Position numbers and translations under genes: made by a program. Shown here piece by piece: positions 29,636 to 53,584 of a stretch of 64,000 nt of DNA. Below the pieces are notes generated by a model. That model did no database searches. It was not told the DNA's origin and saw only the letters and a list, made by a program, of their open reading frames with translations. The stretch is taken from positions 326,896 to 390,895 of the forward strand of contig CAVQXS010000003.1 in assembly GCA_963717965.1 (NCBI GenBank). Reading direction: 5' to 3'. The stretch comes from an uncultured Thermoleophilia bacterium (GTDB lineage Bacteria > Actinomycetota > Thermoleophilia > UBA2241). How positions within the stretch are numbered: position 1 is the stretch's first letter; every line of letters starts with the position of its first letter.

Positions 29636-29645
29636 GCCCGGAGCA

Positions 29646-34053: not shown

Positions 34054-35471
34054 TCAGACCACGCCTCCGCGACGATGCGCCGAAGCGTGCCGAGGACCTC
34101 GTCGCCGAGCGGCACGGCAGTGTGCTCGGCGAGGAGCCGGCCGGCGATGACGGTCGCCTTCTCGTAGGCCCCCTCCCTGCCCGAGGCGATCCAGGCGTCC
34201 CACATGCTGCGGTCGAGCAGCCGGGGACGCCACACGTCCTTCATGTGCCGGCGCGTGTGGCGCTGGCCGAGGAAGTTGCCGCAGATGTCGACCAGGCGGA
34301 TGGCGTCGAGCGCCATGGTCTCGTCGTCGACCTCGATGCCTGCCGCGATCTTCGCGTTCCAGCTGAAGATCTCGGTGTCCATGACCAGCTGCTGCGGGCT
34401 GAAGGTCATGCCGGCGCCGAGGGTACCGGCTCCGCCGGTCACGTCGGCGCCCGCGGCGGTCGTGCTCAGCGCGGCGAAGGCGTCCTGCGTGCAGGCCTGC
34501 CAGTCGGGCTCGTGGCTCGTGGTGCGCTCGCCGCCGGCGACGAGCGGCAGGCCGACGTGGGCGGCGAGCTGTGCGGCGGCGAGCTGGAAGAGCGAGGCCG
34601 ACGGGCCGGCCGCCGGCAGGCCGGCGACCGCGGGGTCGGCGGCGTAGAAGAACGGCGCGCCGGGGACCGCGGCCTGGACGGCCGCGCAGCCGGCGAGCAC
34701 GCCGGCGTGATGGCGGATGAGGGCGACGACGAGGTCGGGGGGCGGCGGGCCGCCGATCGGGGTGGGCGGGCCGGGCGGGCCGGCCCCCTCCGCGGCGTCG
34801 GTCGCAGCACCGCGCGGCGCGAGAACCAGGCCGACGGGCAGGCCGGCGCGCGCGAAGACGAGCGCCGCGTCCAGCGCGTCGGCGCCCCCGCAGAGCGAGA
34901 GCGGCGGGTGGCGGCGCGACTCGCCGGCGGAGCCGGCAACGGCCGCCGCCATCGCCGCGGCGGCTTCGGCCTCGGCGGACGCCGTCAGGCCCGAGGCCAT
35001 CACGTGCTTACTCGTGCCGGCGAAGCAGCGCACGAGCTCGCCGAGCGCGGTCTCGCCGACGGCATGCACGGGCGGTCCGGCGACGACGGCCACCTCGGGC
35101 AACCCGTCGGCGAGACGCACGGCGGCGTCCAGGTCGTCCGCGGTCGCCGGAACGGGATCGCCGCCGGCGAGCGGGCGCACCCGCGCCGGCACCCCAGCGC
35201 CCCCGGCGGTCGGGACGCCGGCCGCCAGCCACAGCAGGCCGGCGCCCACGGTCACGTCGTGCCCCGGCGCGCGGCCGGCGAGGGCGAAGGTCGCGGGCGC
35301 CGACGCGGTCGCGGCTTCAGCCGCGGCACTCCCGACGCCCAGAAGTCCCAGCGCGGCCGCGTGCACGCGCGCGACGTCATCATCGCTGAGCACGCGCAGC
35401 GAGAGGCGCGCCGGCGTCGTCATGATGGGGCGCGCCTGGGGCTGCGCCGCGCCCTGCGTCGGCTCGGTCAC
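34054..35471 (-). CDS. MttB-superfamily methyltransferase paralog B (divergent, Ala/Gly-rich); 3' end approximate
   Basis: The C-terminal half aligns with the other paralogs (SPQQLVMDTEIFSWNAKIAAGIEVDDETMALDAIRLV..GNFLGQRHTRRHMKDVWRPRLLDR). The GTG start overlaps the upstream stop (GTGA). The reading frame has no stop until 33384; a TGA one frame off lies at 34054-34056. Confidence 0.65.
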
Positions 35472-36905
35472 CGGCTGCCCCCTGCCGCCTCGGCGAGCAC
35501 GGCCTGCAGCCGCTCGCGGATCGCTGCGTCCAGCGCAAACGCGCGCGGCTCATCGCGCAGCTCCTGCGTGCGCGCGACCACGCGCTCCTTGAGCGTGCTC
35601 GCGCCGGCGGCCGCCCAGCGGTCGTGCGTGGCACGATCGAACAGGCGCGGCTGCCACGTCTCGCGGTGATGCTGGCGCGTGTAGCCCCGGCCCAGGTGAC
35701 TGCCGCCGGGGCCGACCGCGTCTATTTCGTTGAGCGCCAGCGCGTCGTCGTCCACGCCGACCTCGACGAGCAAGGCGCGGGCGTAGCCGACGAGCTCGTC
35801 ACCGAGGACGATGGTCTCGTAGCTGCTCTGCAGGCCGCTCTCGAGGTAACCGACGTCGTGCAGCAGCGTGGCGCGGCTGAGCGCACCGAGCACCGCAGTG
35901 ATGCCGGCCTCGGCCGCCCACTGCTCGTCGAACGTCTTGGCGTCGGCGACCGCGGCGTAGGCGAAGCTCGGCAGGCCGTAGAAGCGCGCCAGATCGGTCG
36001 CCGCGGCATTGCCCAGGAAGTGCTCGGGGGCGCCGTACACGTCGACGGCGGTGCGCATGTCGAAGGCACCGCAGCCGACGCCGTACACGAACGGCGCGCC
36101 GCTGCGCGTCAGCTGGTGGATGACGAGACCGCTCAGCGTCTCGGCGTTGCCGACGACGATGGTCGCGGTCATGGAGGCCGGCGCTGTGGTGCCTGCAGCC
36201 GGCGCTGGTGCGTAGATGAGCGGGATGTCGAGCTCGGCGCAGGCCTGGACCTTGTCCAGCGCCTCGGCGCTGTGGACCAGCGGCGGGCTGGGCATCGCGT
36301 AGCAGCCGAAACTCCGCGGCCCCCCCGCACATCGCGGCCATGTCCTTCATGCTGCGCAGGGAGCCCGCGTCGTGCGCCGTCGTCAGCAGCGGCTTGCGCG
36401 TGCCGGCGAGCATGGCGGCGAACTGGGCGAGGTCGCCGACCTCGGCCGCCACGTCGTTCGGGAGTCCCATGCTCATGACGAAGTCGAGGTTGGGCAGCTT
36501 CTCCGCAAGTGCGGCCATGCCCTCGACGTCGGCGGTCCTGCTCTGGCGACGCTCGCCGGTGTCGGGGTCGGCGACGTAGACGCAGTCCGACCCCGTGCCG
36601 AAGTAGCTGTTGCCGTCCTTGAGCTCGAGGCCGCCGAGCTCGCCGCGGCGGGCGTGACCTTCGCCGCCGGAAGCGCCGCGCTCCCTGAGCTTGAAGTGAC
36701 GCGGCGCGCTCTGCAACGCTGCGTCCACCAGGGCGGCCGGGATGCGGGCGCGCGTCCCTTCGACGCGCGCGCCCGCCTCCGCCAGCCGCTCGCGGGCACC
36801 GGCGTGGCGGACCTCGACGCCGGTCTCCTCCAGCAGCGACAGCGTCGCTTCGTGGACGCGCCAGCAGGCGGCGTCGTCCCAGACGGTGAGGCGGGCGGCG
36901 GGCAT
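35468..36905 (-). CDS. MttB-superfamily (non-Pyl) methyltransferase paralog A; one frame disruption near 36300
   Basis: ORF 35799..36905 (MPAARLTVWDDAACWRVHEATLSLLEETGVEV...) joins ORF 35468..36295 (MPSPPLVHSAEALDKVQACAELDIPLIYAPAPAAGTTAPAS...GYLESGLQSSYE...GPGGSHLGRGYTRQH). A likely homopolymer indel (gagTTTcgg) separates them. Confidence 0.8.
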
Positions 36906-38371
36906 CAGGCCCCCGCCAGCTCCTGGTCGGCGCGGTCGACGATCGCGCGCAGCTCCCTCACCACGTCCTCAGGGAGCGGCTCGGGCCGGTAGCTGGCCAG
37001 GATGTCGTCGGCGATCTCCGTCGCCTTCTCCAGGGCGCCCTTCTTGCCCTCGCGCAGCCAGTTGTCGTACGGGGTACGGTCCCACACGGTGGGACGCCAG
37101 ATCTCCTGCATGTGCCGGCGCGTGTGCTTCTCGGCGAGGTAGGTGCCGTTCGGACCGACCTTCTTGATCACGTCGAGCGCCAGCGTCTCGTCGTCCACGA
37201 GGATGCCGCCTGCGACCTTCTGGACGATCCCGTAGATCTCGGTCTCCATGATCATGTGCGGGTAGCTCAGGATCTTGGACCCGTTGAGCAGCCCGGCGCC
37301 GTTCATCATGTCCGCGTTGGTCATCACGCTGGCGAAGGTGCTGAACGAGTCGTCGATCGCTGCCTGCCAGTCGGGCTCCTTGGCGCCGGTGGCCATGGTG
37401 CCCATCGCCATCGGCACGCCGTAGAAGTGGGCGAGCTGGGTGGAGGCGCCGGCGAGCAGGTAGTCCTCGGGCGAGCCGCCGGTATAGCCGCCGGTCTTGA
37501 GGTCGATGACGCTCGGGGCGCCGGCGAAGAAGGCCGGCACGCCCGGGTAGGCCAGCTCGAGGAGCACGACGCCGCTGAGCGCCTCTGCATTCTGGACGAC
37601 GAGATTGCCGGCCAGCGTCGCCGGGCCGGTCCCGGCCGCAAGTGGCATGGGCATGAAGCCGCTGGCCAGCCCGTGCTCTGCGGCCACGAGATTGGCCTCG
37701 AGGTTGGGGCCATCGTGCGCGAGAGGATCCACGGCGCACTGCATGAAGCTGAGGATCGGGCGCTCGCGCAGCTTGTCCGTGCCGCCGGCGATGGCGGCCG
37801 CCATCTCGACGAGGTAGCGGGCGGGCTTCTCGCCGACCGTGGTCACCGTCTGGAAGTGCTTGCTCGTGTTGGCGAACACGGCCTCGGCGTCGTGGAGCGC
37901 CTTGGTCGCCGGGGGCACGTCCTGGCTGGTGACCACGGGGCCCCAGTAGTAGCTGATGTTGGGGAGCGCGTCGACGAAGCGGGCGCTGGTCGCCGCGTCG
38001 GCCTTGGTGCTCGGTCGCTTCTCGCCCGTCTTGTGGTCGAACACAAAGACGCCGGAGCCGTCGTTGCTGAGGTAGCTGTGCTTGCCGTCGATCAGCATGT
38101 CGCAGTCGGGGTGGCGGCCGGCGAGCACGTAGCTGTCCGGCACAAGCGAGACGGCCTCCATGACGACCGCGCGAGGGAGCTTGACGATCTGCGTCGCGCG
38201 GTCCACCTCGCAGCCGTTCTTCTCGAGCACGTCGAGGGCGCGCTCACTGGGGAACCGGATGCCCACCGTCTCGAGCACGTCGAGGGTGGCCTCGTGGATG
38301 CGCTCGAGCTCACTCGGATTGAGGACGTCCCACCAGAGACGGGGGGCGATGGGGTTGATACGGGTGGTCAT
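36905..38371 (-). CDS. MttB-superfamily (non-Pyl) methyltransferase paralog C
   Basis: Intact, 488 aa: LWWDVLNPSELERIHEATLDVLETVGIRF..., GTGPATLAGNLVVQNAEALSG, GAKEPDWQAAIDDS, METEIYGIV, GPNGTYLAEKHTRRHM. Confidence 0.9.
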   Translation of the reverse strand: MTTRINPIAPRLWWDVLNPSELERIHEATLDVLETVGIRFPSERALDVLEKNGCEVDRATQIVKLPRAVVMEAVSLVPDSYVLAGRHPDCDMLIDGKHSYLSNDGSGVFVFDHKTGEKRPSTKADAATSARFVDALPNISYYWGPVVTSQDVPPATKALHDAEAVFANTSKHFQTVTTVGEKPARYLVEMAAAIAGGTDKLRERPILSFMQCAVDPLAHDGPNLEANLVAAEHGLASGFMPMPLAAGTGPATLAGNLVVQNAEALSGVVLLELAYPGVPAFFAGAPSVIDLKTGGYTGGSPEDYLLAGASTQLAHFYGVPMAMGTMATGAKEPDWQAAIDDSFSTFASVMTNADMMNGAGLLNGSKILSYPHMIMETEIYGIVQKVAGGILVDDETLALDVIKKVGPNGTYLAEKHTRRHMQEIWRPTVWDRTPYDNWLREGKKGALEKATEIADDILASYRPEPLPEDVVRELRAIVDRADQELAGA

Positions 38372-38647
38372 TGCGGCAACCTCGCAGGGGTCCGACGACG
38401 GCGGGTCAGGGTGGAGTCGGCAGCGGGCGGGCAGTCGCGGTGTTGCTCAGAAGGAGCCCGTCCGCGGAGGCGGAGGGCTTAGAGACCGCAGGAGCGGTTG
38501 ATCGTGCTGATGCTGATGCTGGATGCGTCGGGCACGGGCCGCAGTCTATCACCGGGCCAACGCCCGGCAAAACGCCGCGCGTTTGCGGAGGGTGCAGCGG
38601 TTTTCTGTGTCCGCCGGCAGTCCACCGGCGGGCTCGTGCGGCGCCCC

Positions 38648-40060
38648 TCAGGTCCCCGGCCGATGAGCCTCGACGTCGGCGAGGATCCGGTCGAGGCCCG
38701 CCTTTGCGTCGTCCGGCAGCTCGAAGGCGCGCGGCTCGGAGCGCAGCTCCGCGACCCGCGCCCTCAGGCGGTCGAGCAGCGTCCGCGACCCGCCGGCCTC
38801 CCACGCGTCGTGGCGGGTCGTGTCGAAGAGGTCGCTCTGCCAGATCTCCCGGAAGTGCCTTCTCGTGTAGGGCCGGGCCAGGTGGTTGCCGCCCGGCCCC
38901 ACCGCCTTGATCTCGTCCAGCGCCAGAGCCTCGTCGTCGGTGGCCAGCGGCGCCATGAACGCCTTGGCCCAGCCGAGCACGTGGTCGCCGAAGACGATCG
39001 ACTCGTAGCTGCCCTGCAGGCCGCACTCGAGGTAGCCCACGTCGTGCAGCAGCGTCCCGCGCGAGAGCTTGCCGAGGATCGCCGTCAGCGACGTCTCCGC
39101 GCTCCACTGCTCGTCGAGCACCTTGCTGTCCGAGTGCGCCGCGTAGGCGAAGCTCGGCAGGTCGTACCAGCGCGCCAGGTCGGTCTGCGCCTGGTGGCCG
39201 CGGAAGACGTCCGCGGAGGAGTACACCTCGTTCATCGTGCGCATGTTCATCGCGCCGACTCCGACGCCCCAGACGAACGGCGCGCCCGGCCTGACGGCCT
39301 GGCTGAGCACGAGGCCGGCGAGCACCTCGGCGTTGGCCACCACGATCACCGCGGTGACGCTCGCCGGCGCTGTCGTGCCGGCGTTCGGCGCCGGCGCCCA
39401 GATGAGCGGGATGCCGAGCTCGGCGCAGGCGATCACCTTGCTGGCGCCGTCCTCGTCGAACAGCAGCGGGGGCACGGGCATCGCGTAGATGCCGAAGCTG
39501 CCGACCTCGCCGGCCAGCGCCGCCATCTCCCGCATCTTCGGCAGGATGTGCCCGTCCCTCGGGGCGACGATCAGCGGCTTGCGCGTGCCGCGCATCATGG
39601 CGTCGACCTGCGCGAGGTCGTCGACGGCCTGCGGCGCGTCCTCGGGCAGGCCCATGCTCATCACGAAGTCGATGTTGGGGAGCTTCTCGCAGAGCGCGGC
39701 CATGCCCTCGATGTCGGCGCGGCGCACCCGGCGGCGCTCGCGCGTGTCGGGGTCGCAGACGTAGAGCACGTCCGAGCCGGTGCCGCAGTACGTGTGGTGG
39801 GCGTCGAGGACGAGCGGCTCCGTCTCGCCGCCGCGCGGCTTGATCGTCCAGTCGCGCGGCGCGCTCTTCAGCGCCGCCTCGACCAGCTCTGCAGGGATGC
39901 GCACGCGCCTGCCGTCGACCTGCGCACCGGCCTCGGCGAAGAGCTCGGCGGCCGGCGCGTACTTGACCTCGATGCCGGTCTCGGCGAGCACCTCCAGGGT
40001 CGCCTCGTGGACGCGCCGGCAAGCGGCCTCGTCCCAGATCGTCAGGCGAGCTGCGTTCAT
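38648..40060 (-). CDS. MttB-superfamily (non-Pyl) methyltransferase paralog D
   Basis: ATG at 40060 behind AAAGGAGAGA. 470 aa, closest to paralog A (MNAARLTIWDEAACRRVHEATLEVLAETGIEV..., APAPNAGTTAPAS, GYLECGLQGSYE, GPGGNHLARPYTRRH). Confidence 0.9.
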   Translation of the reverse strand: MNAARLTIWDEAACRRVHEATLEVLAETGIEVKYAPAAELFAEAGAQVDGRRVRIPAELVEAALKSAPRDWTIKPRGGETEPLVLDAHHTYCGTGSDVLYVCDPDTRERRRVRRADIEGMAALCEKLPNIDFVMSMGLPEDAPQAVDDLAQVDAMMRGTRKPLIVAPRDGHILPKMREMAALAGEVGSFGIYAMPVPPLLFDEDGASKVIACAELGIPLIWAPAPNAGTTAPASVTAVIVVANAEVLAGLVLSQAVRPGAPFVWGVGVGAMNMRTMNEVYSSADVFRGHQAQTDLARWYDLPSFAYAAHSDSKVLDEQWSAETSLTAILGKLSRGTLLHDVGYLECGLQGSYESIVFGDHVLGWAKAFMAPLATDDEALALDEIKAVGPGGNHLARPYTRRHFREIWQSDLFDTTRHDAWEAGGSRTLLDRLRARVAELRSEPRAFELPDDAKAGLDRILADVEAHRPGT

Positions 40061-40147
40061 GTTCGGTCTCTCCTTTGCTCGCACTCGCCGGCTCGCGGGC
40101 CGCGAGAGCCCTGGACACGGTCGGCCCGCAGCGGCGATGCTACCGGA

Positions 40148-41371
40148 ATGGACGTCCAGCACGTGTACGACGATGGGCTCTGCATGCAGTGCGGCTCGTG
40201 TGTCGGCGTCTGCCCAGCCGACGCCGTTCGCCTCGAATGGGACCTGCACGTCGGACACCGCCTCCGCGTGGACCCGGCCACGTGCACCGACTGCGGCGCG
40301 TGTCTCGAGGCATGCCCCGGACCGGGCATTGATTTCGGCGCGGAGGCGTGGTGGCGCGAACGTAACGAGGGCGCTCCCGTCCGCGACTTCCTGGGCCCTT
40401 GGCGCGGCCTGTGGTTCGGCTGGGCGTCCGACGCAGAGGCGCGGCACGCCGGGGCGTCGGGCGGCGTGGCCACGGCGCTGCTCGCAGGTGCGCTCGAGTC
40501 GGGCTTCGCCGACACCGTGCTTGCGGTGGGCCTTGACCCGGACAACCCGCTGGCCGCCGTCGGCGTGGCGTGCACGACGCCGGATGAGGTCGCGGCCTGC
40601 CGCGGCTCCAAATACAACGTCGTGGCGGTGAACACGCTGCTGCGCCGCGTGCTCGAAGAACCCGGACGCTACGTGCTCGTCGGCCTGCCCTGTCACATCC
40701 AGGGGCTGCGACTCGCGCAGCGCCGCTCCCGGCGGCTGCGCGAGCGCGTCGTCCTCGGCCTGGGCATCTTCTGCGGCCTGACCAACGAGCCGCGCGCCAC
40801 GGAGGTGGCCGCGCGGCAGGCCGGTCTCGATCCGCGTGACCTGAAGAGCGTCTCGTACCGCGGGCCCGGCTGGCCGGGCGGCATGCGCCTCGAGACGCAC
40901 GACGGGCGTGTCCGCTACCGCGACTACCCGGAGTACTACGACCGGCACCTGGCGGCCATCGTCCCACCCCGCTGCCGCATCTGTCCCGACGCGCTGGCCG
41001 AGCTCGCCGACATCTCCGTCGGTGACGCCTGGCTCGAGCGCTTCGAGGGCTCCGACGGCGTGAGCGACCTCATCGTCCGCTCGCCGGCCGGCGAGCGCCT
41101 GCTGGCGGACCTCGCCGGCCGCCTCGAACTGACGCCGGCGGACCCGGACGACATGGTCGCCTCCCAGAGCGAGACCCGCCGGGTCAAGCGCGATGTCTGC
41201 CGGGGCCGCCTCTGGCTACGCTCGCTCACCGGGCGGCCGCTCCCCGAGTACCCCGGCCTCGCTCTGGCGGCATCGCCTGGCGACCGGCGGCGGGCGATCG
41301 CCGACGTGGCCGGGGAGCGCCTGTACCGCTTGCTCGCCGACAGGCGCTACCCGACGTCGGCGGGCCGGTGA
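40148..41371 (+). CDS. FrhB/FdhB-family (coenzyme F420 hydrogenase/dehydrogenase beta-like) FeS flavoprotein with N-terminal 2x[4Fe-4S] ferredoxin
   Basis: CMQCGSCVGVCP and CTDCGACLEACP motifs, then GASGGVATALL, GLPCHIQGLR, PRCRICPD..ADISVGDAW. Diverges from MttB paralog D. Confidence 0.75.
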   Translation: MDVQHVYDDGLCMQCGSCVGVCPADAVRLEWDLHVGHRLRVDPATCTDCGACLEACPGPGIDFGAEAWWRERNEGAPVRDFLGPWRGLWFGWASDAEARHAGASGGVATALLAGALESGFADTVLAVGLDPDNPLAAVGVACTTPDEVAACRGSKYNVVAVNTLLRRVLEEPGRYVLVGLPCHIQGLRLAQRRSRRLRERVVLGLGIFCGLTNEPRATEVAARQAGLDPRDLKSVSYRGPGWPGGMRLETHDGRVRYRDYPEYYDRHLAAIVPPRCRICPDALAELADISVGDAWLERFEGSDGVSDLIVRSPAGERLLADLAGRLELTPADPDDMVASQSETRRVKRDVCRGRLWLRSLTGRPLPEYPGLALAASPGDRRRAIADVAGERLYRLLADRRYPTSAGR

Positions 41372-41439
41372 GCTTCCGAGGAGCCATCATGCCGAGAGCA
41401 GCCGATCAACGCACCGGAGGCCGCGGGAGGAGGTGACAG

Positions 41440-42432
41440 ATGTTCGCGGTCTGGATCTGTCTGGCGTTCCTGGTCGCCGCCTGCTGGGGTCTGACCGTCG
41501 TCATCAACAAGCGGACGCTCAGCCTCGTCGACCCGATCGCCCTCAACGTGATCCTGCGCGGTCCGACGCTGGTTATCATGCTCCTCGTCATCGTCCCGCT
41601 CACCGCCCTGCACGGCTGGGACCTTGGCTTCGCCATGACGTGGGAGGCCGCCGGTTACATCGCCCTGTCGGCCATCGTCACGTGGCTGATCGCCTTCAAC
41701 ACCTACTACCTGGCGCTGCGTCTGGGCTCGGTCGGCATCGTTTCACCGATCGTGGCCACAGACCCGGTCTTCACGGCCCTTTTCGCCGTGCTGATCCTCG
41801 GCGCCGCCCTGGCGAGCCTGGTACTCGCGGGACTCCTTATCGCGACGGCCGGCGTGGCGCTGCTTTCTCGCGAGGGCGAGGACGAGCCTGTGGTGGGGCC
41901 GGACACGCTGGTGGCAGCACCGGCTGCCGGCTCGGCGTCGATTGACCTCGCGGGACCCCCACGACACTCGCCCGCCACACCCCACGAACGGCTGACGCTC
42001 ATCGCGCTCGCCATCGTCACGGCCGCCGGCTGGGGGCTCGGCCCCGTCCTCATCGAGCAGGCCCAGCGCACCCTCGGCGGCAACAGCGCGACCATGATCC
42101 TGATGAGTCAGGCGATCGGCCTGGTGCTGGTTCTCCCGATCGTCGTCGCCAGGCGGCGCGTGCTCCTGCGACCACTGCGAGCAGGAGAGCGTAGGCTTCT
42201 CGTCTCCCTCGTTCTCGCCTCGGCCGTACTGGAAGCGATATTCTCCATCTCCTACTACTTCCTCATCGACAACATCGGGGCCGTTCTCACCGTGCTGATC
42301 ATCGCGACGTCGCCCGTCTTCTCCATTCTCGGCGGCGTCCTGCTGCTCAAGGAGAAGTACGACCGGTCGCTGGCAGTCGGCGCCTCACTCACGCTCGCGG
42401 GCGTGGCGATGGCGATCCTCGGAGCGCGATGA
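41440..42432 (+). CDS. EamA/DMT-family transporter (seventh DMT gene, different subfamily from the tandem six)
   Basis: 330 aa, two EamA repeats separated by an acidic loop, about 10 TM segments. Confidence 0.8.
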   Translation: MFAVWICLAFLVAACWGLTVVINKRTLSLVDPIALNVILRGPTLVIMLLVIVPLTALHGWDLGFAMTWEAAGYIALSAIVTWLIAFNTYYLALRLGSVGIVSPIVATDPVFTALFAVLILGAALASLVLAGLLIATAGVALLSREGEDEPVVGPDTLVAAPAAGSASIDLAGPPRHSPATPHERLTLIALAIVTAAGWGLGPVLIEQAQRTLGGNSATMILMSQAIGLVLVLPIVVARRRVLLRPLRAGERRLLVSLVLASAVLEAIFSISYYFLIDNIGAVLTVLIIATSPVFSILGGVLLLKEKYDRSLAVGASLTLAGVAMAILGAR

Positions 42433-44141: not shown

Positions 44142-45611
44142 ATGAAGCGGAACCTGCATGCCGGGCGACCCACCTCAGGGGGGCTCAGCCTGAACGTGTT
44201 CACCGAGGCCGAGCTCGACGACATCCATCTCGGCTCGCTCGAGGTGCTGGAGCGTACGGGGGTCTGGGTCGAGGCCGACGACGCGCTCGACATCCTCGGC
44301 GACGGTGGTTGCGTCGTGAATCGCGAGACGCGCGTGGTGCGCATCCCGCCACATCTGGTGGAGGATGCGATCCGCTCGGCTCCACCCAAGAACTACCTGT
44401 GCGGGCGCGACTCCGAGATGGACCTCGTCCTCGAGGGCGGCCGCGTCTACTTCTCCAACTTCGACGAGGGCATCATGCTCGTCGACTCACGCACCGGCGA
44501 GTACCGCCACCCGGTCCTGCAGGACGTCCGCGAGGCCGCGCGGCTGGTCGACGCGCTCAGCGACATCGACACCTACGAGTCGGCGGTGCACCCGACCGAC
44601 GCGCCGGAGGCGACCGCCTGTCTCTACAAGTGGGAGGCGGCGATCCTCAACACCGGCAAGCCGGTCGGCACCGAGGCGACCAGCGCCTACGACTGCCGCA
44701 AGCTGATCGAGCTGGCGACCGTGGTGGCGGGTGGCGAAGACGAGTTCCGTCGTCGCCCGCTCATCGGCTTCGGCGTCTGCCCGGTGAGCCCGCTCAAGCT
44801 GCCGCGCGACGCCACCGAGGTGATCATCGAGTCGGCGCGCGCCTGGTGCCCGGACACGATCCTCAGCATGGCGATGTCCGGGGGGTCGTCCCCGGTCACC
44901 CTCGCCGGCACGCTCGTGCTGCACAACGCCGAGGTGCTCTCCGGCATCGTGCTCTCGCAGCTCGTCGAGCGCGGCTGCCCCGTCACGTACGGCTCGTCGA
45001 CGACGGCGATGGACCTCAAGCTGGCGGCGGCGTGCGTGGGCTCGCCCGAGCTCGCCCTGTTCAGCGCCGCCTGCGCCCAGATCGCCCGCCGCTACCTGCT
45101 GCCGAGCTTCGTCGCCGGGTTGTAGGCGGACTCCAAGCTCGGTGACGCGCAGACCGGTCACGAGAAGACCCTCACCGGACTCCTTCCTGCGTTGGCAGGC
45201 GCCAACCAGATCTACGGAGCGGGGATGATCGAGTCGGGCGTCACCTTCGACCTTGGCCAGCTGGTCATGGACAACGAGATCGCGCGCATGATCAAGTCCG
45301 TCGTCGCCGGCATCCCGGTCACCGACGAGACCCTGGCGGTCGACGACATCGCAAGGGTCGGCGCCTTCGGTGACTTCCTCTCGCTGGACGCGACGCTCAG
45401 GCACATGCGCGAGCTGAGCCAGCCCGAGGTCCTCGACCGCCGCGTGCGCGAGGACTGGGAGGCGCGCGGAGCGACCGATCTCGCCACCCGGACGCGCGCC
45501 CGTGCGCTCGAGCTGGTCGAGTCCCACCAGCCCCTGCCGCTCGACCCCGACGTGGCCGAGCAGGTGCACCGCATCATCGCAGCCGCCGACCGCGAGAAAG
45601 GCGTCACGTGA
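44142..45611 (+). CDS. mttB: Trimethylamine methyltransferase MttB, pyrrolysine-type (in-frame TAG at 45123-45125 = codon 328)
   Basis: ATG at 44142 behind GGAGG. ..[73 protein letters not shown].. in one continuous frame (43560..45125 and 45192..45611 are both in the same frame, coordinate mod 3 = 0). 489 codons in total. Confidence 0.75.
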
Positions 45612-46972
45612 AGGACCGGCTCAAACCCATCGACCGCGACCGCCTCGCGGGACTCCAGGCGGCCGAAGACGAGCTCTTCGTCCAGCGCCACCCGCACTCC
45701 CGCGAGCTCTTCGAGCGGGCCCAGTCGCACCTGCTCGACGGCGTGCCAATGAACTGGATGACACGCTGGGCCAGCCGGTTCCCGCCCTTCGTGGCGGAGG
45801 CGCACGGCGCCCGCTTCACCTGCGTCGACGGGCACGAGTACATCGACTTCTGCCTGGGCGATACCGGCGCGATGACCGGTCATTCGCCGGATGGACCCGT
45901 CTCGGCGATCGCCGCCCAAGCCGCGCGGGGAATCACGACGATGCTCCCCACCGAGGACTCGCTCTGGGTGGCCGGCGACCTCGCGCGCCGCTTCGGCCTC
46001 CGTTACTGGCAGCTGGCGCTCACGGCGACGGACGCCAACCGGTTCGCCGTTCGCCTCGCGCGCCACGTCACCAAGCGGCCCCGGATCCTCGTCTACAACT
46101 ACTGCTATCACGGGTCCGTGGACGAGACGATCATCACCATCAACAACGGCGTCCCGGGCCCCAAGCCGGGCAACGCCGGCCCTCCGGTCGACCCGACGGT
46201 CACCACCAAGGTGATCGAGTGGAACGACCTCGATGCCCTCGCAGAGGCGCTCGCGCCCGGCGACGTGGCCTGCGTCCTCGCCGAGCCGGCCCTCACGAAC
46301 ATCGGCATCATCCTGCCGGACGCGGGCTACCACGCCGGACTGCGCCGGCTCACCCGCGAGACGGACACACTCCTCGTCATCGACGAGACGCACACCATCT
46401 GCGCCGGTCCCGGCGGCTGCACCGCCGCGTGGAACCTCGAACCAGACATGGTCACCCTCGGCAAGCCGATCGGCAGCGGCGTCCCCGCCGCCGTGTACGG
46501 CTTCGGAGACGCGATCGCCGACCGTGTCCACGCGGACTGGGACTACCATGCCGCCGACGAGTGCGGCATCGGCGGCACACTCGCCGGCAACGCCCTGAGC
46601 GTGGCGGCGATGCGAGCAACGCTGGGCGAGGTGCTCACCGAGGAGACCTACGCGCGCACGATCCCGCTCGCCGGCCGCTGGGCGGACGGCGTCCAGGGCG
46701 TGATCGACGAGTTCGGCCTGCCCTGGGTGGTCAAGCGCCTCGGCTGCCGCGCGGAGTACTGGCCGCGACCCGTTGCGCCCCGCAACGGGGGCGAGGCGGC
46801 CGCGGCAGAGGACGAGGAGCTCGACCGCTACCTCCACCTCTTCATGCTCAACCGCGGCATCCTGATGACGCCGTTCCACAACATGGCGCTGATGGCGCCG
46901 CAGACGACCGCCGAGGACGTCGACCGCCACACCGAGGTCCTGCGCGAAGCGGCGAGGACGCTTGTCGGCTGA
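45608..46972 (+). CDS. Class-III (GSA-aminomutase-like) PLP-dependent aminotransferase
   Basis: The GTG start overlaps the mttB stop (GTGA). GARFTCVDGHEYIDFCLGDTGAMTGH, TATDANRFAVRLAR, LLVIDETHT, TLGKPIGSGVP (PLP lysine). Confidence 0.85.
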   Translation: MKDRLKPIDRDRLAGLQAAEDELFVQRHPHSRELFERAQSHLLDGVPMNWMTRWASRFPPFVAEAHGARFTCVDGHEYIDFCLGDTGAMTGHSPDGPVSAIAAQAARGITTMLPTEDSLWVAGDLARRFGLRYWQLALTATDANRFAVRLARHVTKRPRILVYNYCYHGSVDETIITINNGVPGPKPGNAGPPVDPTVTTKVIEWNDLDALAEALAPGDVACVLAEPALTNIGIILPDAGYHAGLRRLTRETDTLLVIDETHTICAGPGGCTAAWNLEPDMVTLGKPIGSGVPAAVYGFGDAIADRVHADWDYHAADECGIGGTLAGNALSVAAMRATLGEVLTEETYARTIPLAGRWADGVQGVIDEFGLPWVVKRLGCRAEYWPRPVAPRNGGEAAAAEDEELDRYLHLFMLNRGILMTPFHNMALMAPQTTAEDVDRHTEVLREAARTLVG

Positions 46973-47002: not shown

Positions 47003-48481
47003 TCACCGCTCGATGCCGGCCAGCTCGGCGTCGGCGGCCGCGACGAGCCTTCGGAGCTCGGCGCGCACGTCTTCGGGGAGCGGGTCGGGCGCGTGCGTCC
47101 GCAGGATCTCACGCGCCCGCTCCTCCGCGTTCTCGAGCGCGCCCCGCTTGCCGGCGGCCAGCCAGGCGTCGTAGGACGTCCTGTCCCAGACGCCCGGACG
47201 CCAGATCTCGCCCAGGTGCGCCCGCGTGTGCTTCTCGGCGAGGTACGTACCGCCGGGGCCGACCCGGCGGATCACGTCGAGCGCCAGTGTCTCTTCGTCG
47301 ACCTCGATGCCGCCGGTGACCTTCTGCACGATGCCGTAGACCTCGGCTTCCATCAGCAGATGCGCGTAGCTCAGGGTCTTCGAGCCGTCGAGCAGTCCGC
47401 AGCCGCTCATCATCTCGGCGCCTGCCGAGACGCTGGCGAGCGTCGACAGCGCGTCATCGACGGCTGACTGCCAGCCCGGCTCCTTGGCGCCGCTCGCCAT
47501 CGTGCCCATGTTCATGGCGAAGCCGAAGTGGTGCGCCATCTGCGTGGCGGCAGCGGCCAGGACGTAGTCCTCCGGGCTGCCGCCGGTGTAGCCGCCGGTC
47601 TTGAGGTCCATGACGGAGGGCGCGCCGGCCAGGAAGACGGGCGCGCCCGGGTACGCCAGCTGGACGAGGACGACGCCGGCGATCACGGCCGCGAGGTTCA
47701 CGACGAGGTTGCCGGCCATGGTGGCCGGCGCGGAGGCGCAGGCGAGCGTGAGCGAGAGAAAGCCGACCGGCACGCCGGCCTCCGCGCAGACGAGCGCCGC
47801 CTCGAGGCTCACGGCGTCGTTGCTCAGCGGGTCGATGGGGCAGGCGATGAGGCTCATGAGCGGCCGGCGGCGGAGCGCGTCGGCCCCGCCGGCCACCGCC
47901 CGCGCCATCTCGACGGCACGGCGCGTGATCTCTTCTCCGACCACGTCGACCGCCTGGAAGTGCTTGCTCGTGTTGGCGAAGACCGCCTCGAGCTCGTGCA
48001 GCGGTCGCGTCGCCCGCGGCACGTCCTCGGCGGTCACGACCGGTCCCCAGGAGAAGCTCACCTGCGGTAGTGCGTCGACGAAGCGGGCGGAGTCGGCGAC
48101 GTCGGCCTTGGTGCCCGGCCGCAGCTCGCCGGTCTCGGGGTCGATGACGCGCACGCCGCAGCCGTCGTTGCTGAGGTGACAGGCGGAGCCGTCGAGGACG
48201 ATGTCACAGCGCGGGTCGCGGGCGGCGAGGAGCGGCGCCTCCGGCGCCGCCTGCAGCGCCTCCCGCACGATGTGCTCGGGCAGGCGCGCGACCTGCGACG
48301 CGCGGTCGACGCGGCAGCCGCCGCGCTCGAGCGCGTCGAGCGCGCGCTCCAGCGGGAAGCGGACGCCGACCTCGGCCAGCGTCTCGAGGACGGCGGCCTC
48401 GAGCCGCTCAACGTCCTCCGCGCTCAGCACCCGCCAGCGCAGGCGCGGCCTGATGGGGTCGATCCGCGCCACCTCGGCCAT
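47003..48481 (-). CDS. MttB-superfamily (non-Pyl) methyltransferase paralog E
   Basis: Intact, 492 aa, closest to paralog C (LRWRVLSAEDVERLEAAVLETLAEVGVRF, GAKEPGWQSAVDDA, MEAEVYGIV, GPGGTYLAEKHTRAHL). Confidence 0.9.
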   Translation of the reverse strand: MAEVARIDPIRPRLRWRVLSAEDVERLEAAVLETLAEVGVRFPLERALDALERGGCRVDRASQVARLPEHIVREALQAAPEAPLLAARDPRCDIVLDGSACHLSNDGCGVRVIDPETGELRPGTKADVADSARFVDALPQVSFSWGPVVTAEDVPRATRPLHELEAVFANTSKHFQAVDVVGEEITRRAVEMARAVAGGADALRRRPLMSLIACPIDPLSNDAVSLEAALVCAEAGVPVGFLSLTLACASAPATMAGNLVVNLAAVIAGVVLVQLAYPGAPVFLAGAPSVMDLKTGGYTGGSPEDYVLAAAATQMAHHFGFAMNMGTMASGAKEPGWQSAVDDALSTLASVSAGAEMMSGCGLLDGSKTLSYAHLLMEAEVYGIVQKVTGGIEVDEETLALDVIRRVGPGGTYLAEKHTRAHLGEIWRPGVWDRTSYDAWLAAGKRGALENAEERAREILRTHAPDPLPEDVRAELRRLVAAADAELAGIER

Positions 48482-48610: not shown

Positions 48611-48649
48611 GAAGGGGCGGCGAGGCGCTCCGCGCCTCGCCGCCCCTTC
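48611..48649 (-). terminator. Perfect 18-bp stem / 3-nt loop hairpin downstream of the ABC operon
   Basis: GAAGGGGCGGCGAGGCGC tcc GCGCCTCGCCGCCCCTTC, 28 nt after the ATPase stop (48677). No U-tract. Confidence 0.5.
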
Positions 48650-48676
48650 TGGTTCACGGCCGAACGGCCGGCCCCG

Positions 48677-49690
48677 TCAGAGGTTCTCGTCGCCCGGAGG
48701 CAGGGGCGTCTCACCGGCCGCTCCCGGCCCCAAGGGGATCTCGGGGAGGGCGATGTCCTTGACGTTGTCTTCGTCGATCGCCGCGCCGACCGCACCCTGT
48801 GGCGGACCCTCATCGACCGCGTCGGGGTCGGGCAGCTCCTGGTCGACCTCGGTGATGCCGAGCTCCTTGGCGTGCTCGGGCTCCTTCTCCGGCAGGATGT
48901 GCCGCAGGAAGCGCTTGGTGCGGTCGTCCTTGGGATGGAAGAAGACCTCGCTCGGCGGGCCCTGCTCGATGAAGTAGCCGTCGTCCATGTACACGACGCG
49001 GTCGGCCACGTCGCGGCTGAAGCCCATCTCGTGGCTCACCACGATCATCGTCATGCCGCCCTCGGCGAGCTCCTTCATGACCTTGAGCACCTCGCCGATG
49101 AGCTCGGGGTCGAGAGCGCTGGTCGGCTCGTCGAAGAGCATGAGCACGGGGTCCATCGCCATGGCGCGGGCGATGGCAACGCGCTGCTTCTGGCCGCCCG
49201 AGAGCTGGCTCGGGAAGAAGTCCATGCGTTCGCCGAGGCCCACCTTGGTGAGCAGCTCCTGCGCCTTGCGGATGGCCTCGTCCTTCTTCTCGCCCTTCAC
49301 CAGGATCGGACCCTCGGTCACGTTCTCGGTCGCGTCCTTGTGCGGGAAGAGGTTGAACTCCTGGAAGACCATGCCGCACTTCATGCGGATCTCGTGCACG
49401 TCCTTCTTGAAGCCGCTGCCGTGGCTGCCGCAGGTGACGTGCACGTCCCCGACCCTGATCTCGCCGGAGGTGGGATCCTCGAGGAAGTTCAGGCAGCGCA
49501 GGAAGGTGCTCTTGCCGGAGCCGGACGGCCCGATGAGCACCAGCACCTCGCCCTTGTAGACCTCGAGGTCGATGCCCTTGAGCACGTGGTTGCGGCCGAA
49601 GTACTTCTGCAGGCCCTCCACCTTGACGACGAGCTCGCGCCCCTTGTCGTCGGTGATCGTCTCGTGTGGGAAAGTGTGAGTCGATGCCAT
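48677..49690 (-). CDS. Polar amino-acid ABC transporter ATP-binding protein with about 90-aa acidic/Pro-rich C-terminal tail
   Basis: Walker [10 protein letters not shown], signature LSGGQKQR, Walker [14 protein letters not shown]-loop VSHEM. Tail [23 protein letters not shown]... Confidence 0.9.
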
Positions 49691-49691
49691 G

Positions 49692-50943
49692 CTACTTCCC
49701 CTTCCCCTTCTCCTTCTCGCGGGCCTTGTCGCGCGCCATGCGCGTCTCGAGCTTGGCCTGCCAGAAGCTGAAGAAGATCGTCAGCGCCCAGTACCAGGCC
49801 GCGGCCACCAGCAGCGTGCTGAAGAAGCTGAAGGTCGCGGCGCCGGCCAGCTGCGAACGGCGCAGGAGCTCCTCGACGGTGATGACCGACACCAGTGAAG
49901 TGTCCTTGATGAGGGCGATGAAGTCGTTGCCGACGGCCGGGATCACGATCTTGAGCGCCTGCGGCAGGACGATGCGCCGCTGCGTCTGCCAGCCGCTCAG
50001 GCCGATGGCCCACGCGGCCTCGTTCTGGCCCTTGGGCACCGCCTGGATGCCGGCGCGGAAGACCTCGGTGAGGTAGGCGCCGTAGTTGAGCGAGAGGGCC
50101 GCGACGCCGGACCAGAAGGCCGGCGGGTTCAGCGACTGCGGCAGACCGAATGCCTTGATGATCTCGGGGATCACCTGGTAGATGGCGATGATCTGCAGCA
50201 ACAGGGGCGTCCCTCGGAACAGCGAGGTGTAGAAGGTGGCGACCCAGTAGGGGATCCGCCCCCACACCATCCTCCACATGTAGCCCCAGCTCTGGTACCG
50301 GTCCCACGCCTGCCTGAAGGTCATCTTCTTGGAGAGGCGCCCGAGGGAGCCGAAGAGCGCGAGGATGACTGGCGAGGACGATGGAGATGACGGTGAGCTC
50401 GACGGTGACGACGCCGCCGCGGGCGATGTACCAGAACCAGTCCTTCATCACCTGGACGCTGACAAGGCTGCCGGCGCCCGCCTCGCCCACCGACTTGAAC
50501 GACCACGTGTAGCCGACCTCTTTGCCGGTCGTGGTCACGAGTACGGCGCGGAACTCGTAGTCGCCGGCGGGGTAGGTCTTGGCCATGTCGAATTCGAGCG
50601 TCGACGTGGCCCGCGAGACGGCCGGCAGGAGGTACGGCGGCTTGCTGAGCTCCACCTCGCCGCCGTCGATGAACAGCTTGCACTTCTCCAGCGCGAGCTC
50701 CGAGCCATTCGGCTGGAAGTTCACCTCGACGGTGTCGCCCGTCCAGTTCTTGATGCCCTTAGGGTCGTCGGGATTCGGGATGGTGCCCTTGACGATGGGC
50801 GTTCCCGAAGGCGCCGACGACGGCGATGGCGACGCCGCCGCCAGCGCGATGGGCGTGAGCGCCGCCGCCGTCACCGCGAGCACGGCCGCGAAGAGGGCGA
50901 CACTCACGAACCAGCGTCGTTTGTGCATCGGCGAAGACCTCAC
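49692..50943 (-). CDS. Polar amino-acid ABC transporter permease fused to an N-terminal signal peptide + about 150-aa extracytoplasmic domain; one frame disruption near 50335
   Basis: ORF 49489..50943 gives signal peptide + beta-rich domain + first TM ([14 protein letters not shown]). ORF 49692..50324 gives the His/Glu/Gln/Arg-opine-type permease core ([37 protein letters not shown]). Confidence 0.8.
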
Positions 50944-51040
50944 TGTCGGGACTGCGGCGGGGGCCCTTGGAGGTCGCCCCCCGCCGCAGTCGACTTGGCC
51001 TAGGCGGCCACGCCCGCCGGGTGTGGCCGCAACGCTGCTG

Positions 51041-51953
51041 CTACTGCTTGACGGTCAGATCGAGACCGTTGTACCACTTCTCGCTCATCGCGGTGAGCGA
51101 GCCGTCCTCGTGCATCTTGGTGACGGCGTAGTTGAGCATCGCGAGCCAGTCGGTCTCGCCCTTCTTGATCGCGAACGAGAGATCCTCGTAGTACAGCGGG
51201 GCGCCGGAGAAGTCGAACGGCTGGCCCTGCGAGATGGCCTGCTGCCCGGTGGGGCCGGCGGTCATCACGAAATCGAGGTTGCCGTTGCGGAGGTCCGGGA
51301 AGGTGTCGGCGTCGGTCGTGTACGTCTTGACGTCGGCCTTCGGTGTTTTCCTTGAGCCACGAGTAGTAGGTGGTGCCCGCCCCGACGCCGACCTTCTTGC
51401 CGGCGAGGTCGGCGACGCTGGCGACCTGCGGTCCGCCCTTCTTCACGAACAGCTGGCCCGACGTGTAGTAGTACGGGATGGTGAAGTCGAGCACCTTGAG
51501 GCGCTTGACGATCTCGGGGGCCGTCTGCTTGCCGTCGACCGCCGAGGTCATCGAGCCGATAGACACATCGTACTTGCCCTGGTTGATGGACGTGGGGATG
51601 GTCTCCCACGCCGGGTTCTCGAACTGGACCTTGAGACCGAGGATCTCGGCCATCTTCTTGGCGACGTCGACGTCGAAGCCCACGAGCTCGCCGGTAGCCT
51701 GGTCTATCGAGCTCTGCGGCGCGTAGTTGGCGTCGTTGGCGACGATGACCGTGCCGGCATCGACGATCTTCTGTGCGAGACCGGTCGGCGCCTTGCCGAG
51801 GATCTGCTGGGCGATGTCCGCGGCTGAGGTCGCCTGCGCGCTGGGGCTGCTCTCCGTGCTGCTACTGCCACCGCACGCCGCGACAACCCCCGCGAGCGCG
51901 ATGATGGCGACGAGGAGTACCGCCGCCAGAATGTAGGTCTTGCCCTTTCTCAT
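51041..51953 (-). CDS. Family-3 solute-binding lipoprotein (polar amino-acid ABC transporter); one frame disruption near 51340
   Basis: ATG at 51953 behind GGAGG. Lipobox VVAACGG. VIVANDANYAPQSS, GFDVDVAKKMAEILG. The C-terminal part lies in ORF 51041..51268. Confidence 0.8.
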
Positions 51954-52201
51954 GCCTCCGTCCTTTCCGGCTGATTGTTCCCGACGGCCGCGTGACCCAC
52001 CGATGTGGACCTCTTGCGGATGGCGGCCCCCACCGCCCGTCAGGATGTACCTTGTCGCGTTCCCCCTGAGCGACAGTTGTGTCCGATTTATACAGCACAG
52101 CCTCGAAAAGACAACCCTCACGAGGCCGGCCGACGTTGGGGTTTGACCCGACTCGTGAGGATGCACGCGCTCGAGTGCGGGAACGCGGGCGACGTCCGAC
52201 G

Positions 52202-53584
52202 TCAGCCGACGCGCGCCAGCCGCCGGAGCTCGGCATCCACCGCCGCGTCGAGAGCGGGCGGGCGGTGCGCAGCGACCGCGCCGGCCACGCGTTCGTGGGC
52301 GCGGTCGATCGCCGTCTGCCGGCCGCCGGCGGTCCAGTAGCGGTGCGGCTCGTCGACGGCGAGGGATGGGCCGCCGGCGGCGGGCGGAGCCTGTCCGCCG
52401 GCCGAGCCGCCGGCGGCCGTCAGATCGAGACCGGCGGCGATCGTGCGTGCTTGCGTGAGCGTCTCCACCCCGAGCGCCATCTCCTCGTAGCTGAAGATCC
52501 GGCCCCCGGAGACCATGCCCACCCCGGTGAGCATGTCGACACCGGCGGCCAGCGAAAGGTACGTCGTCGTCGTGTCGTCCAGCGCCGACTGCCAGCTCGG
52601 CTCCTTGGCGCCGCTCGAGTTCACGCCGCACTGGGTCGGCAGGCCGTAGAAGTGACCGACGTCGCCGACCGCCGCCGCCATGATCGTGTCCTCGGGGGCG
52701 CCGCCGGTGAAGTCGCCGCTCTTCAGGTCCATGACGCTCGGGATGAAGCAGATGAACACCGCTGCCCCGGGGAACGCCGCTTGGATGGCGCAGACGGAGC
52801 TGAGCGCCTCGGCGATGCCGACGACGAGCGACCCCGCCATGGTGATCGGCGTGGTCGAGCCGCCCATCGGCATGGTCACGAAGCCGATCGGGATGCCGGC
52901 CTCGGCGAAGACCAGGCCGGCCTCCAGCGTCCCGGCGTCGTTGCCGAGCGGCGTGACGGTGCCGAGCAGAGCGCTGATCGGCGGCTCGGCGCGAAGCTTC
53001 TCCTCAGAGCCGCTCACCGCCAGGGCCATCCGCACCGCGTCCGCCGCGAGCTCGGGCTCGACGACGGTCACCGTCTGCACGTGCTTGCCCGTGTTGGCGA
53101 TCGCCAGGTACAGCTCGTGCAGGCCGCGGACCGAGGCGGGCCGGTCCTGCGCGCTCACCGCGGGCCAGGAGAAGTCGATCTCGGGCAGCGCGTCGACGAC
53201 GCGGCTGATGGTGGCCACGTCCTCCGCCGTGGTGCCCCGCTTCTCGCCGCTCTCGAGATCGTAGATCTCGACGCAGCAGCCGTCGGTCGTGATCAGCGAG
53301 CGGGCGCCGGTGACGATGGGGGCTGCGGCGCGAGCCCCGAGCGTCATGCGCGCCGGCGCCAGGCCGATCAGCCGGCGCACCACCTCGGCAGGCATGGTGA
53401 CGCGCGCGCCGTCTGCTGCGGCGCCCTGCGCCACGAGGGCCGCGCGCGCCCGCTCGGACGGCATGGCCACGCCGACCTCGGCGAGCACGGCGAGCGCCGC
53501 CGCATCTAGGTGGTCGAGGTCCTCCCGCGAGAGGATGGAGAGACGCCCGGCCGAGCCGATGGTGTGGGTGGGGGTGTCCGTCAT
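52202..53584 (-). CDS. MttB-superfamily (non-Pyl) methyltransferase paralog F
   Basis: ATG at 53584 (MTDTPTHTIG). LSILSREDLDHLDAAALAVLAEVGVAM, GGSTTPITMAGSLVVGIAEALS, GAKEPSWQSALDDT. Gly/Ala-rich insertion near the C-terminus. Confidence 0.85.
   Translation of the reverse strand: MTDTPTHTIGSAGRLSILSREDLDHLDAAALAVLAEVGVAMPSERARAALVAQGAAADGARVTMPAEVVRRLIGLAPARMTLGARAAAPIVTGARSLITTDGCCVEIYDLESGEKRGTTAEDVATISRVVDALPEIDFSWPAVSAQDRPASVRGLHELYLAIANTGKHVQTVTVVEPELAADAVRMALAVSGSEEKLRAEPPISALLGTVTPLGNDAGTLEAGLVFAEAGIPIGFVTMPMGGSTTPITMAGSLVVGIAEALSSVCAIQAAFPGAAVFICFIPSVMDLKSGDFTGGAPEDTIMAAAVGDVGHFYGLPTQCGVNSSGAKEPSWQSALDDTTTTYLSLAAGVDMLTGVGMVSGGRIFSYEEMALGVETLTQARTIAAGLDLTAAGGSAGGQAPPAAGGPSLAVDEPHRYWTAGGRQTAIDRAHERVAGAVAAHRPPALDAAVDAELRRLARVG

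Follow-up and report, generated by a model that had tools for sequence, protein, structure and literature searches.

A conserved island of seven divergent MttB-superfamily genes, one of the pyrrolysine type, in Thermoleophilia

A 64-kb stretch of DNA from an uncultured soil bacterium of the class Thermoleophilia, phylum Actinomycetota (contig CAVQXS010000003.1 of assembly GCA_963717965.1, positions 326,896 to 390,895), here called the window, carries seven genes of the MttB superfamily within about 20 kb. We label them A to G by coordinate (Table 1). D, C, B and A follow one another on the minus strand, E lies on the plus strand, and G and F, again on the minus strand, flank an ABC importer. 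Anaerobes are well known for expansions of the superfamily in which one genome holds many paralogs. An earlier interpretation, made from the letters and open reading frames (ORFs) of this DNA and called here the sequence-only reading, took the block for an island devoted to the demethylation of several methylamines or quaternary amines, with a plus-strand gene of the pyrrolysine (Pyl) type and a coupled array of four genes. The window has a GC content of about 70%, at which long spurious ORFs are common, so that genes were placed by third-position GC content and homology.

Results

The seven copies and their types

Searches by tblastn with the unbroken paralogs found seven MttB-like regions, and reciprocal tblastn was consistent with them. 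All seven match the Pfam profile PF06253 (MTTB; gathering score 25 bits), with E-values from 2e-46 to 1e-98. The scores are 158.5 bits for A, 72.8 and 181.5 for the two halves of B, 327.7 for C, 240.6 for D, 182.2 and 104.7 for the two halves of E, 306.8 for F and 226.7 for G; profile positions 1-81 are missing from A, and roughly 408-500 from G. The earlier claim of seven MttB-family genes at essentially these coordinates is thereby upheld, and its placement of them in PF06253 holds for seven of seven.

Pairwise identity among the copies is 24-62%. C and F are 62% identical and B and D 60%, G is 38-40% identical to C and F, and A is 36-38% identical to the same two, its nearest copies. With identities in this range the copies are old paralogs, not recent duplicates or assembly repeats, as the sequence-only reading had supposed in calling them divergent genes. 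The six non-Pyl copies form four types by their sequences: C/F, B/D, G and A. The motifs APAPxAGTTAPAS and GYLExGLQxSYE belong to B and D, GAKEPxWQ belongs to C, F and G, and the copy rich in Ala and Gly is A. A division into at least three types had been proposed before, and the block does divide into the Pyl type and at least three non-Pyl types; the membership had been misassigned, the first motif pair having been given to an 'A/D type' and the second motif to a 'C/E/F type'.

Conservation of the island

The named relatives of the locus are metagenome-assembled genomes (MAGs) deposited as 'Thermoleophilia bacterium' or 'Actinomycetota bacterium', among them the Stordalen Mire MAGs bog_752, fen_672 and palsa_645. 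When conservation was scored within 10 kb on either side of the E-type gene, the arrangement A-B-C-D / E / F..G was found in the same order and orientation in nine other GTDB species-representative Thermoleophilia MAGs, and many more carry as much of it as falls within the locus. The ratio of nonsynonymous to synonymous substitution rates (dN/dS) against orthologs is 0.14 for B, C and E, 0.16 for G, 0.17 for F, 0.19 for D and 0.38 for A, so that all seven copies are under purifying selection. Homologs of C at 80-95% identity are frequent in soil metagenomes and Thermoleophilia MAGs, homologs of D are 63-91% identical, and the ortholog of G in the related database locus L003 (such loci carry L-numbers throughout) is a single-frame gene of 437 aa, 63% identical. 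A further MttB type, absent from the window, occurs in more distant Thermoleophilia and Actinomycetes MAGs (L057, L066-L068, L078, L081, L084 and L085); it has Ser at the Pyl position, within the motif S/T-DAKELCVQVGS, and several of the same loci carry an mtbB gene split by TAG.

Paralog E and its in-frame TAG

E is, judging by its sequence, a genuine Pyl-type trimethylamine methyltransferase, as the sequence-only reading had proposed for the plus-strand gene. It is the sole copy of the seven to pass the TIGR02369 equivalog model, at 660.6 bits against a cutoff of 525; the non-Pyl copies score 210-460 bits, C reaching 460, and all fall below. E is 44% identical to the MttB of known structure 7xcl, and its TAG at 45123-45125 aligns with Pyl334 (X334) of that protein.

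Is this UAG read through? The TAG is conserved in 95 of 95 E-type genes of the loci that we fetched, and each of the best 120 database homologs of the part before the TAG (120/120) is cut at or close to it, nearly all of them at exactly 327 aa. The dN/dS of E is 0.14 before the TAG and 0.14 after it (n=17). Equal constraint beyond the TAG indicates that read-through of E is under selection, and the codon is presumably read as pyrrolysine. An mtbB gene split at TAG is carried by 37 of 87 related loci.

The Rfam model PYLIS_3 matches 45123-45222 on the plus strand, beginning at the TAG, with 78.7 bits against a gathering score of 38. The minimum free energy of this region is no better than that of shuffled sequence (z = +0.43), and a PYLIS element as a structure was rejected on that ground; because there is no excess folding, we take the match as coding homology to Pyl-type mttB only. 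A permissive Rfam scan of 33000-54500 for riboswitches or other RNAs in the spacers returned PYLIS_3 only.

TAG is also the ordinary stop of at least eight well-supported genes of the window, including a hemerythrin gene 1 kb from E; these genes end at 664, 15955, 18965, 23208, 42467, 49692, 57182 and 62098. Decoding of UAG as Pyl would leave them open to read-through, as is the case in other bacteria that use Pyl.

Loss of mttC beside E

In most relatives a gene for an MttC of about 215 aa follows E, the stop and start overlapping. In the window E has no adjacent cognate MttC. Alignment of the window with L015 skips from 11483 to 12127 of the latter, a clean deletion of about 643 nt that takes out mttC and fuses its first six codons (VKDRLK) in frame to a class-III aminotransferase gene, the site lying at 45608-45626 (L015 11467-12127). 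In L038, L005, L001 and L025 all that is left of MttC is a C-terminal fragment of 40-90 aa. Since the fragments in these four relatives fit different partial deletions, the loss of mttC looks recurrent.

An activase gene remains in the window. The RACo/RamA-type gene downstream of the array is 58-68% identical to its L003 ortholog, which carries Fer2, RACo_linker, RACo_middle and RACo_C_ter domains; against the NCBIfam models AcsV and RamA it scores 397 and 137 bits, both under cutoff. A first methyltransferase (MT1), a corrinoid protein, a second methyltransferase (MT2) and an activase are not found together: the window holds seven MT1 genes and the RACo-type activase.

The C-B-A unit, the lesions of B and A, and the state of the assembly

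C, B and A look like one translationally coupled unit. The stop of C and start of B overlap in TGATG, and the GTG start of A overlaps the stop of B in GTGA, an arrangement seen in L015 too. D is separated from C by a spacer of 277 nt and has its own ribosome-binding site (AAAGGAG upstream of the ATG); in L001 a PhzF gene occupies the D/C gap. The four-gene coupled array with three overlapping junctions that had been proposed is thus retained at C/B and B/A and abandoned at D/C. A scan of 33800-41500 for promoter and terminator consensus sequences found none.

Within the 1438-nt span of B the reading frame switches in a run of seven G residues at 36320-36326, as judged by third-position GC and tblastn. 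With one G removed, B encodes a protein of 478 aa that aligns with D along its whole length at 60% identity, and its orthologs are single-frame genes of 475-478 aa. B is an ordinary D-like gene with what is probably an indel of the assembly. The sequence-only reading had described B as Ala/Gly-rich in its N-terminal two-thirds and possibly degenerate or regulatory; B looks Ala/Gly-rich only in the wrong frame, the Ala/Gly-rich copy being A, and with the repaired frame and intact orthologs the suggestion of degeneracy falls as well.

A has no in-frame stop at 34054; in the assembly its ORF goes on through the following gene as far as 33384. A TGA is present at 34056-34054, shifted by one base from A's frame, and six A orthologs end in AGPGL-TAG exactly where the window reads GAG. 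A has also changed in substance: it has an N-terminal deletion of about 30 aa and an 18-aa Pro/Gly insert, and of 21 positions that do not vary among the other copies, MtgB and MttB, it has changed 6, NAE and the Lys that follows the Pyl position among them. It evolves 2-3 times faster than the other copies (dN/dS 0.38, range 0.31-0.48, n=10). The orthologs are intact ORFs of 466-479 aa, and an intact ORF is found in at least 10 other species. Because of the intact orthologs and the dN/dS of 0.38, we regard A as constrained, not dead, and rejected A as a pseudogene; it is an intact, fast-evolving gene, its constraint relaxed but still present, and is possibly non-catalytic.

The A-KamA spacer is locally low in GC and holds, at 33990-34045 on the minus strand, a perfect 11-bp palindrome, GCGCCGGCGCG cac CGCGCCGGCGC, flanked by the direct repeat CCGTGAATCAG. 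Relatives have a hairpin in this spacer too, but a different one.

Are the lesions of B and A biological? The same window breaks dnaA (59242-60715), an essential gene, into two overlapping frames, 59242-59901 and 59366-60715. Genes for a sortase, the solute-binding protein, the permease, KamA and RACo are also in two frames when compared with the clean relative L003, and there are at least eight frame breaks in the 64 kb. The lesion sites of B and A, a G7 run and a GG, are typical places for long-read indels, and both genes (475-478 and 466-479 aa) are unbroken in L008, L015, L029, L034, L039 and others. Among database sequences the nearest relatives are Thermoleophilia MAGs of the long-read 'MFD' kind, whose contigs are named in the style of Flye; some of them are far more fragmented (L005, for example), and this assembly is probably of the same type, judging by these sister MAGs. 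Since unrelated genes, dnaA, KamA and RACo among them, are frameshifted as well and the orthologs are intact, the frameshift of B and the lost stop of A are most likely consensus or assembly indels, and we rejected a biological origin for the frameshifts as the main reading. Frameshifts in long-read MAGs of this kind should not be taken as pseudogenes. Downstream of dnaA lie dnaN, an S4-domain gene and DciA, an order from which it follows that the window adjoins the replication origin.

One might think instead that the island is decaying, with B (frameshifted), A (its stop and motifs lost) and the E system (mttC deleted, the TAG a true stop) surviving here as pseudogenes or relics. The frameshift of B, the missing stop of A, A's faster evolution, the deletion of mttC here with partial deletions in four relatives, and the failure to find pyl genes in the window or related loci would all fit such a history. 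It is a very unlikely one in our judgment, as consensus errors are indicated by frameshifts in dnaA and at least five other unrelated genes of the same window, both lesions lie at sites of the long-read indel type, B and A are intact in many species, and dN/dS is well below 1 for every copy and for the post-TAG part of E.

Substrate-site residues of the six non-Pyl copies

What might the non-Pyl copies act on? The glycine-betaine site of MtgB is made up of Y97, R312, H348 and F356, and R312 is reported to be conserved in all MttB members of known function, all of them users of acidic quaternary amines (PMC13080624). Our alignment has no gaps around R312, where FYG(L/V)P and (D/G)(S/A)K serve as anchors, and a HMMER alignment of C to the MtgB structure 9yce agrees with the residue assignments. 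In the order A, B, C, D, F, G, the Y97 position is occupied by A/D/S/D/C/C, the R312 position by V/F/A/F/N/Q, the H348 position by G/H/N/H/S/T and the F356 position by G/G/S/G/S/G. The site of MtgB is therefore not reproduced in any of these copies: His is kept in B and D only, an aromatic residue at the Y97 or F356 position is seen in none of the six, and the Arg shared by MtgB, MtpB, MtcB, MtyB and MthB is likewise absent (0/6), with no Lys in its place. Overall identity to MtgB is 26-33%. The comparison with the MttB and MtgB structures that the sequence-only reading had proposed thus sets the TAG of E on Pyl334 of 7xcl and finds Y97, R312 and F356 lost in all six of the others.

That reading had named glycine betaine, proline betaine, carnitine and gamma-butyrobetaine, and an island of demethylases for these four betaines would agree with the fact that all characterized non-Pyl MttB members use quaternary amines (PMC13080624). 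The divergence among the copies is as expected of differing specificities, and B and D keep His at the H348 position. We nevertheless consider such an island unlikely: the R312 position holds V, F, A, F, N or Q, the Y97 and F356 positions are non-aromatic in every copy, all six copies are distant from MtgB, and the linked binding protein is of the family-3 polar-amino-acid kind, not ProX/OpuAC. As the substrate residues of MtgB are lost, the known quaternary amines are not the likeliest substrates, and on these residues the four betaines are less likely candidates than had been supposed. It is unsafe here to assume betaine substrates by default, as it is to annotate all seven genes as 'trimethylamine methyltransferase'.

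Neighboring genes

The coordinates of the seven copies and their neighbors are collected in Table 1.

Table 1. Positions in the window of the MttB-superfamily genes and neighboring genes
Feature	Position	Strand	Evidence and remarks
Paralog A	34054-35471	minus	Divergent, Ala/Gly/Pro-rich MttB-family gene; PF06253 E-value 2e-46, profile positions 82-493 only
Paralog B	35468-36905	minus	D-type MttB-family gene, split by a +1 frameshift; Pfam matches both halves
Paralog C	36905-38371	minus	Non-Pyl, GAKEPDWQ type, Ala at the Pyl position; PF06253 E-value 1e-97
Paralog D	38648-40060	minus	Non-Pyl, APAPNAGTTAPAS type; PF06253 E-value 2.5e-71
Paralog E	44142-45611	plus	Pyl-type trimethylamine methyltransferase MttB; in-frame TAG 45123-45125
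Paralog F	47003-48481	minus	Non-Pyl, C-type; PF06253 E-value 2e-91; last gene of the block G, solute-binding protein, permease, ATPase, F
Paralog G	52202-53584	minus	Non-Pyl, shorter, divergent C-terminal region; PF06253 E-value 4e-67, profile positions 26-407 only
BKACE/Kce-like enzyme	22335-23207	minus	Pfam BKACE; NF052387 384.6 bits, just above cutoff 382
GSAM-like aminotransferase	23208-24533	minus	Same co-directional string (22335-30716)
Five EamA permeases	25770-30716	minus	tblastn with L003 genes
RACo/RamA-type reductive activase of corrinoid proteins	30848-32636	minus	Frameshifted near 31680
Lysine 2,3-aminomutase (KamA/AblA type)	32650-33946	minus	Directly downstream of A; extra C near 33721 shifts the frame
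FrhB/FdhB-like protein, two 4Fe-4S motifs	40100-41371	plus	Divergent from D; Pfam FrhB_FdhB_N/C and Fer4
Class-III (GSAM-like) aminotransferase	45608-46972	plus	NF005453 648 bits, cutoff 425; GTG start overlapping the E stop codon
ABC importer between G and F	48677-51953	minus	Pfam ABC_tran, BPD_transp_1
ABC importer ATPase	48677-49690	minus	Pfam ABC_tran
ABC importer permease	49692 to ~50820	minus	BPD_transp_1; frameshifted
Family-3 solute-binding protein	51041-51953	minus	Frameshifted; resembles Lys/Arg/Orn-, Gln- and cystine-binding proteins

After frame repair KamA scores 569 bits with TIGR03820 (cutoff 525) and matches Pfam Radical_SAM and LAM_C; it holds the same position in relatives. 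C, B, A, KamA, RACo, the five EamA genes, the aminotransferase and BKACE make up one co-directional string; relatives with no more than 82% identity in C preserve it up to the aminotransferase. A further permease copy has left a relic, a short stretch of EamA sequence in two frames (24875-25097), between the aminotransferase and the fifth EamA gene. The transporter block begins with G; the binding protein encoded in it is of the polar-amino-acid type, not the ProX/OpuAC betaine type. The FrhB/FdhB-like gene next to D is conserved in relatives (L001, L008). KamA, two GSAM-like class-III aminotransferases and BKACE surround the MttB array, and neither KamDE nor Kdd was seen with them; the set may be an undescribed beta-lysine route.

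These neighbors bring another substrate to mind. N-methylated basic amino acids, for example N-epsilon-methyl-lysines, might be demethylated by the non-Pyl copies, or by C, B and A at the least, the freed lysine being degraded via beta-lysine by KamA, the GSAM-like (possibly beta-) aminotransferase and BKACE. The co-directional string and its persistence in those relatives, a KamA above the lysine 2,3-aminomutase equivalog cutoff, a BKACE just above that of the Kce model, a Lys/Arg/Orn-like importer binding protein and the want of a carboxylate-binding Arg near the methyl site all point this way. The evidence is that of gene context, and in a high-GC actinobacterium neighborhood is no proof of a shared pathway. 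No KamDE or Kdd homologue was seen, the role given to the aminotransferase is a guess (the nearest solved relatives of these enzymes are GSAM and an uncharacterized 'probable aminotransferase'), and we found no link of MttB to methyl-lysines in the literature. We hold the proposal, attractive as it is, to be unlikely. In its boldest form the Arg-less paralogs would be a new functional branch of MttB acting on methyl-lysines, possibly with one methylation state (tri-, di- or mono-) for each of C, B and A, and would feed the undescribed route from KamA through a GSAM-like beta-aminotransferase to BKACE in a soil actinobacterium that decodes UAG as Pyl; this we find decidedly improbable.

Two further features lie away from the island. 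At about 10000-15400 the GC content is lower (64-66%) and several overlapping frames include ORFs with a prepilin N-terminal methylation motif and a TIG-domain protein; this may be a pilus or pseudopilin cluster, possibly affected by frameshifts as well. ARAGORN calls a 93-nt tRNA-Leu (19075-19167), inside a GAF-GGDEF ORF (18965-22222), and a 95-nt tRNA-Ser (62878-62972); neither is found by the Rfam tRNA model, and both are probably false positives.

Discussion

What, then, is the island? The reading that we favor, with a probability of about 0.72, is that of a conserved, anciently diversified set of MT1 corrinoid methyltransferases of the MttB superfamily, one of them, E, of Pyl type, the lesions of B and A in this window being most likely assembly indels. 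In such a set the six non-Pyl copies would each demethylate a different N-methylated compound, with the Co(I) of a corrinoid protein as methyl acceptor; from the corrinoid a second methyltransferase would carry the methyl on to tetrahydrofolate, and the RACo-type activase would re-reduce corrinoid that had become oxidized. Since mttC is deleted and no MT2 lies nearby, the corrinoid partner and MT2 must be encoded elsewhere. The idea of a demethylation island is upheld in part, by the dense and divergent block with its RACo/RamA activase; it is not borne out as regards a corrinoid protein or MT2 in the window.

Several observations weigh against this interpretation. A search with the MttC of L006 by tblastn, together with a scan of the window for the motif DxHxxG...SxL...GG, found no corrinoid protein, and the ORFs that were scanned across the window included neither a B12-binding protein nor an MT2 of the pterin-binding or URO-D type. 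Given the deletion and truncations of mttC, the E system could be in the course of being lost in part of the clade. A role of the non-Pyl copies as methylamine methyltransferases would be an extrapolation from family membership, the MtgB residues being absent. As for pyrrolysine, the 64-kb window has no pylTSBCD genes, and a tRNA-Pyl was detected by ARAGORN neither there nor in 87 related loci (1.4 Mb). A tblastn search of the window and the same 1.4 Mb with an approximate sequence of the Methanosarcina mazei PylS catalytic domain gave no match, a weak negative. With neither tRNA-Pyl nor PylS in 1.4 Mb of related loci, we infer Pyl decoding in the lineage from selection. In one survey PylRS turned up in just two Actinobacteria (PMC9630628).

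Soils and peat are rich in Thermoleophilia, and homologs of the island genes abound in soil metagenomes. From these two facts it would follow that the island probably serves widely as a sink of methylated nitrogen compounds, and as such it would probably compete with methylotrophic methanogens for substrate. The four non-Pyl types, which lack the known binding residues, offer a defined and conserved set of targets for substrate screening.

How does the island compare with known systems? E resembles the Pyl-type MttB of the Methanosarcina barkeri kind (7xcl; TIGR02369) in scoring above the equivalog cutoff, in its 44% identity and in having UAG exactly at Pyl334, and the motif LPSFVAGL-O-ADSK and the PYLIS_3 match are shared as well. 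In most relatives of the window mttC follows E with an overlapping stop and start, as in the Pyl-type MttB/MttC systems. The window departs from those systems in belonging to a Thermoleophilia bacterium of about 70% GC, in the deletion of mttC with fusion of its start to an aminotransferase gene, in the absence from the window of pyl genes, mtbA and a ramA-mttP context, and in a PYLIS region that has no excess stability.

The non-Pyl copies share superfamily, length and the lack of a Pyl codon with MtgB of Desulfitobacterium hafniense (2qne/9yce) and with MtpB, MtcB, MtyB and MthB of Eubacterium limosum, organisms whose genomes likewise hold several paralogs. Like the mtgB locus of D. hafniense, the island also has a gene for a RamA/RACo-type activase close by. 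Unlike MtgB, the six copies, at 26-33% identity, are without Y97, R312 and F356, with H348 in B and D only; no corrinoid protein or MtgA-type tetrahydrofolate methyltransferase is adjacent in the window, and the genes sit instead with KamA, BKACE, EamA permeases and a polar-amino-acid ABC importer.

A published precedent is the report of Stordalen Mire Actinobacteriota MAGs that express Pyl-type mttB, mtbB and non-Pyl homologs (Ellenbogen et al. 2023; PMC10805028). That study sorts the genes by truncation and expression. In the passage that we cite, Bog-752 and RBG-16-64-13 are counted with the most active genera of three phyla, the phylum of each being left unstated. Phylum and gene set (Pyl mttB, mtbB and non-Pyl mttB homologs) agree with what we find, and the E-type genes of the Stordalen Mire MAGs bog_752, fen_672 and palsa_645 are 65-69% identical to the E of the window. 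That Actinobacteriota carry Pyl and non-Pyl mttB is therefore known already, and the window is a further member. The Stordalen Mire study does not describe the island of seven genes, the division of its non-Pyl copies into four types, their lack of the MtgB residues, the linkage with KamA and BKACE or the deletions of mttC. New in detail are the constant architecture of seven genes, four non-Pyl types that lack the Arg, the divergent and still constrained A, the linkage to KamA and BKACE, and the recurrent loss of mttC.

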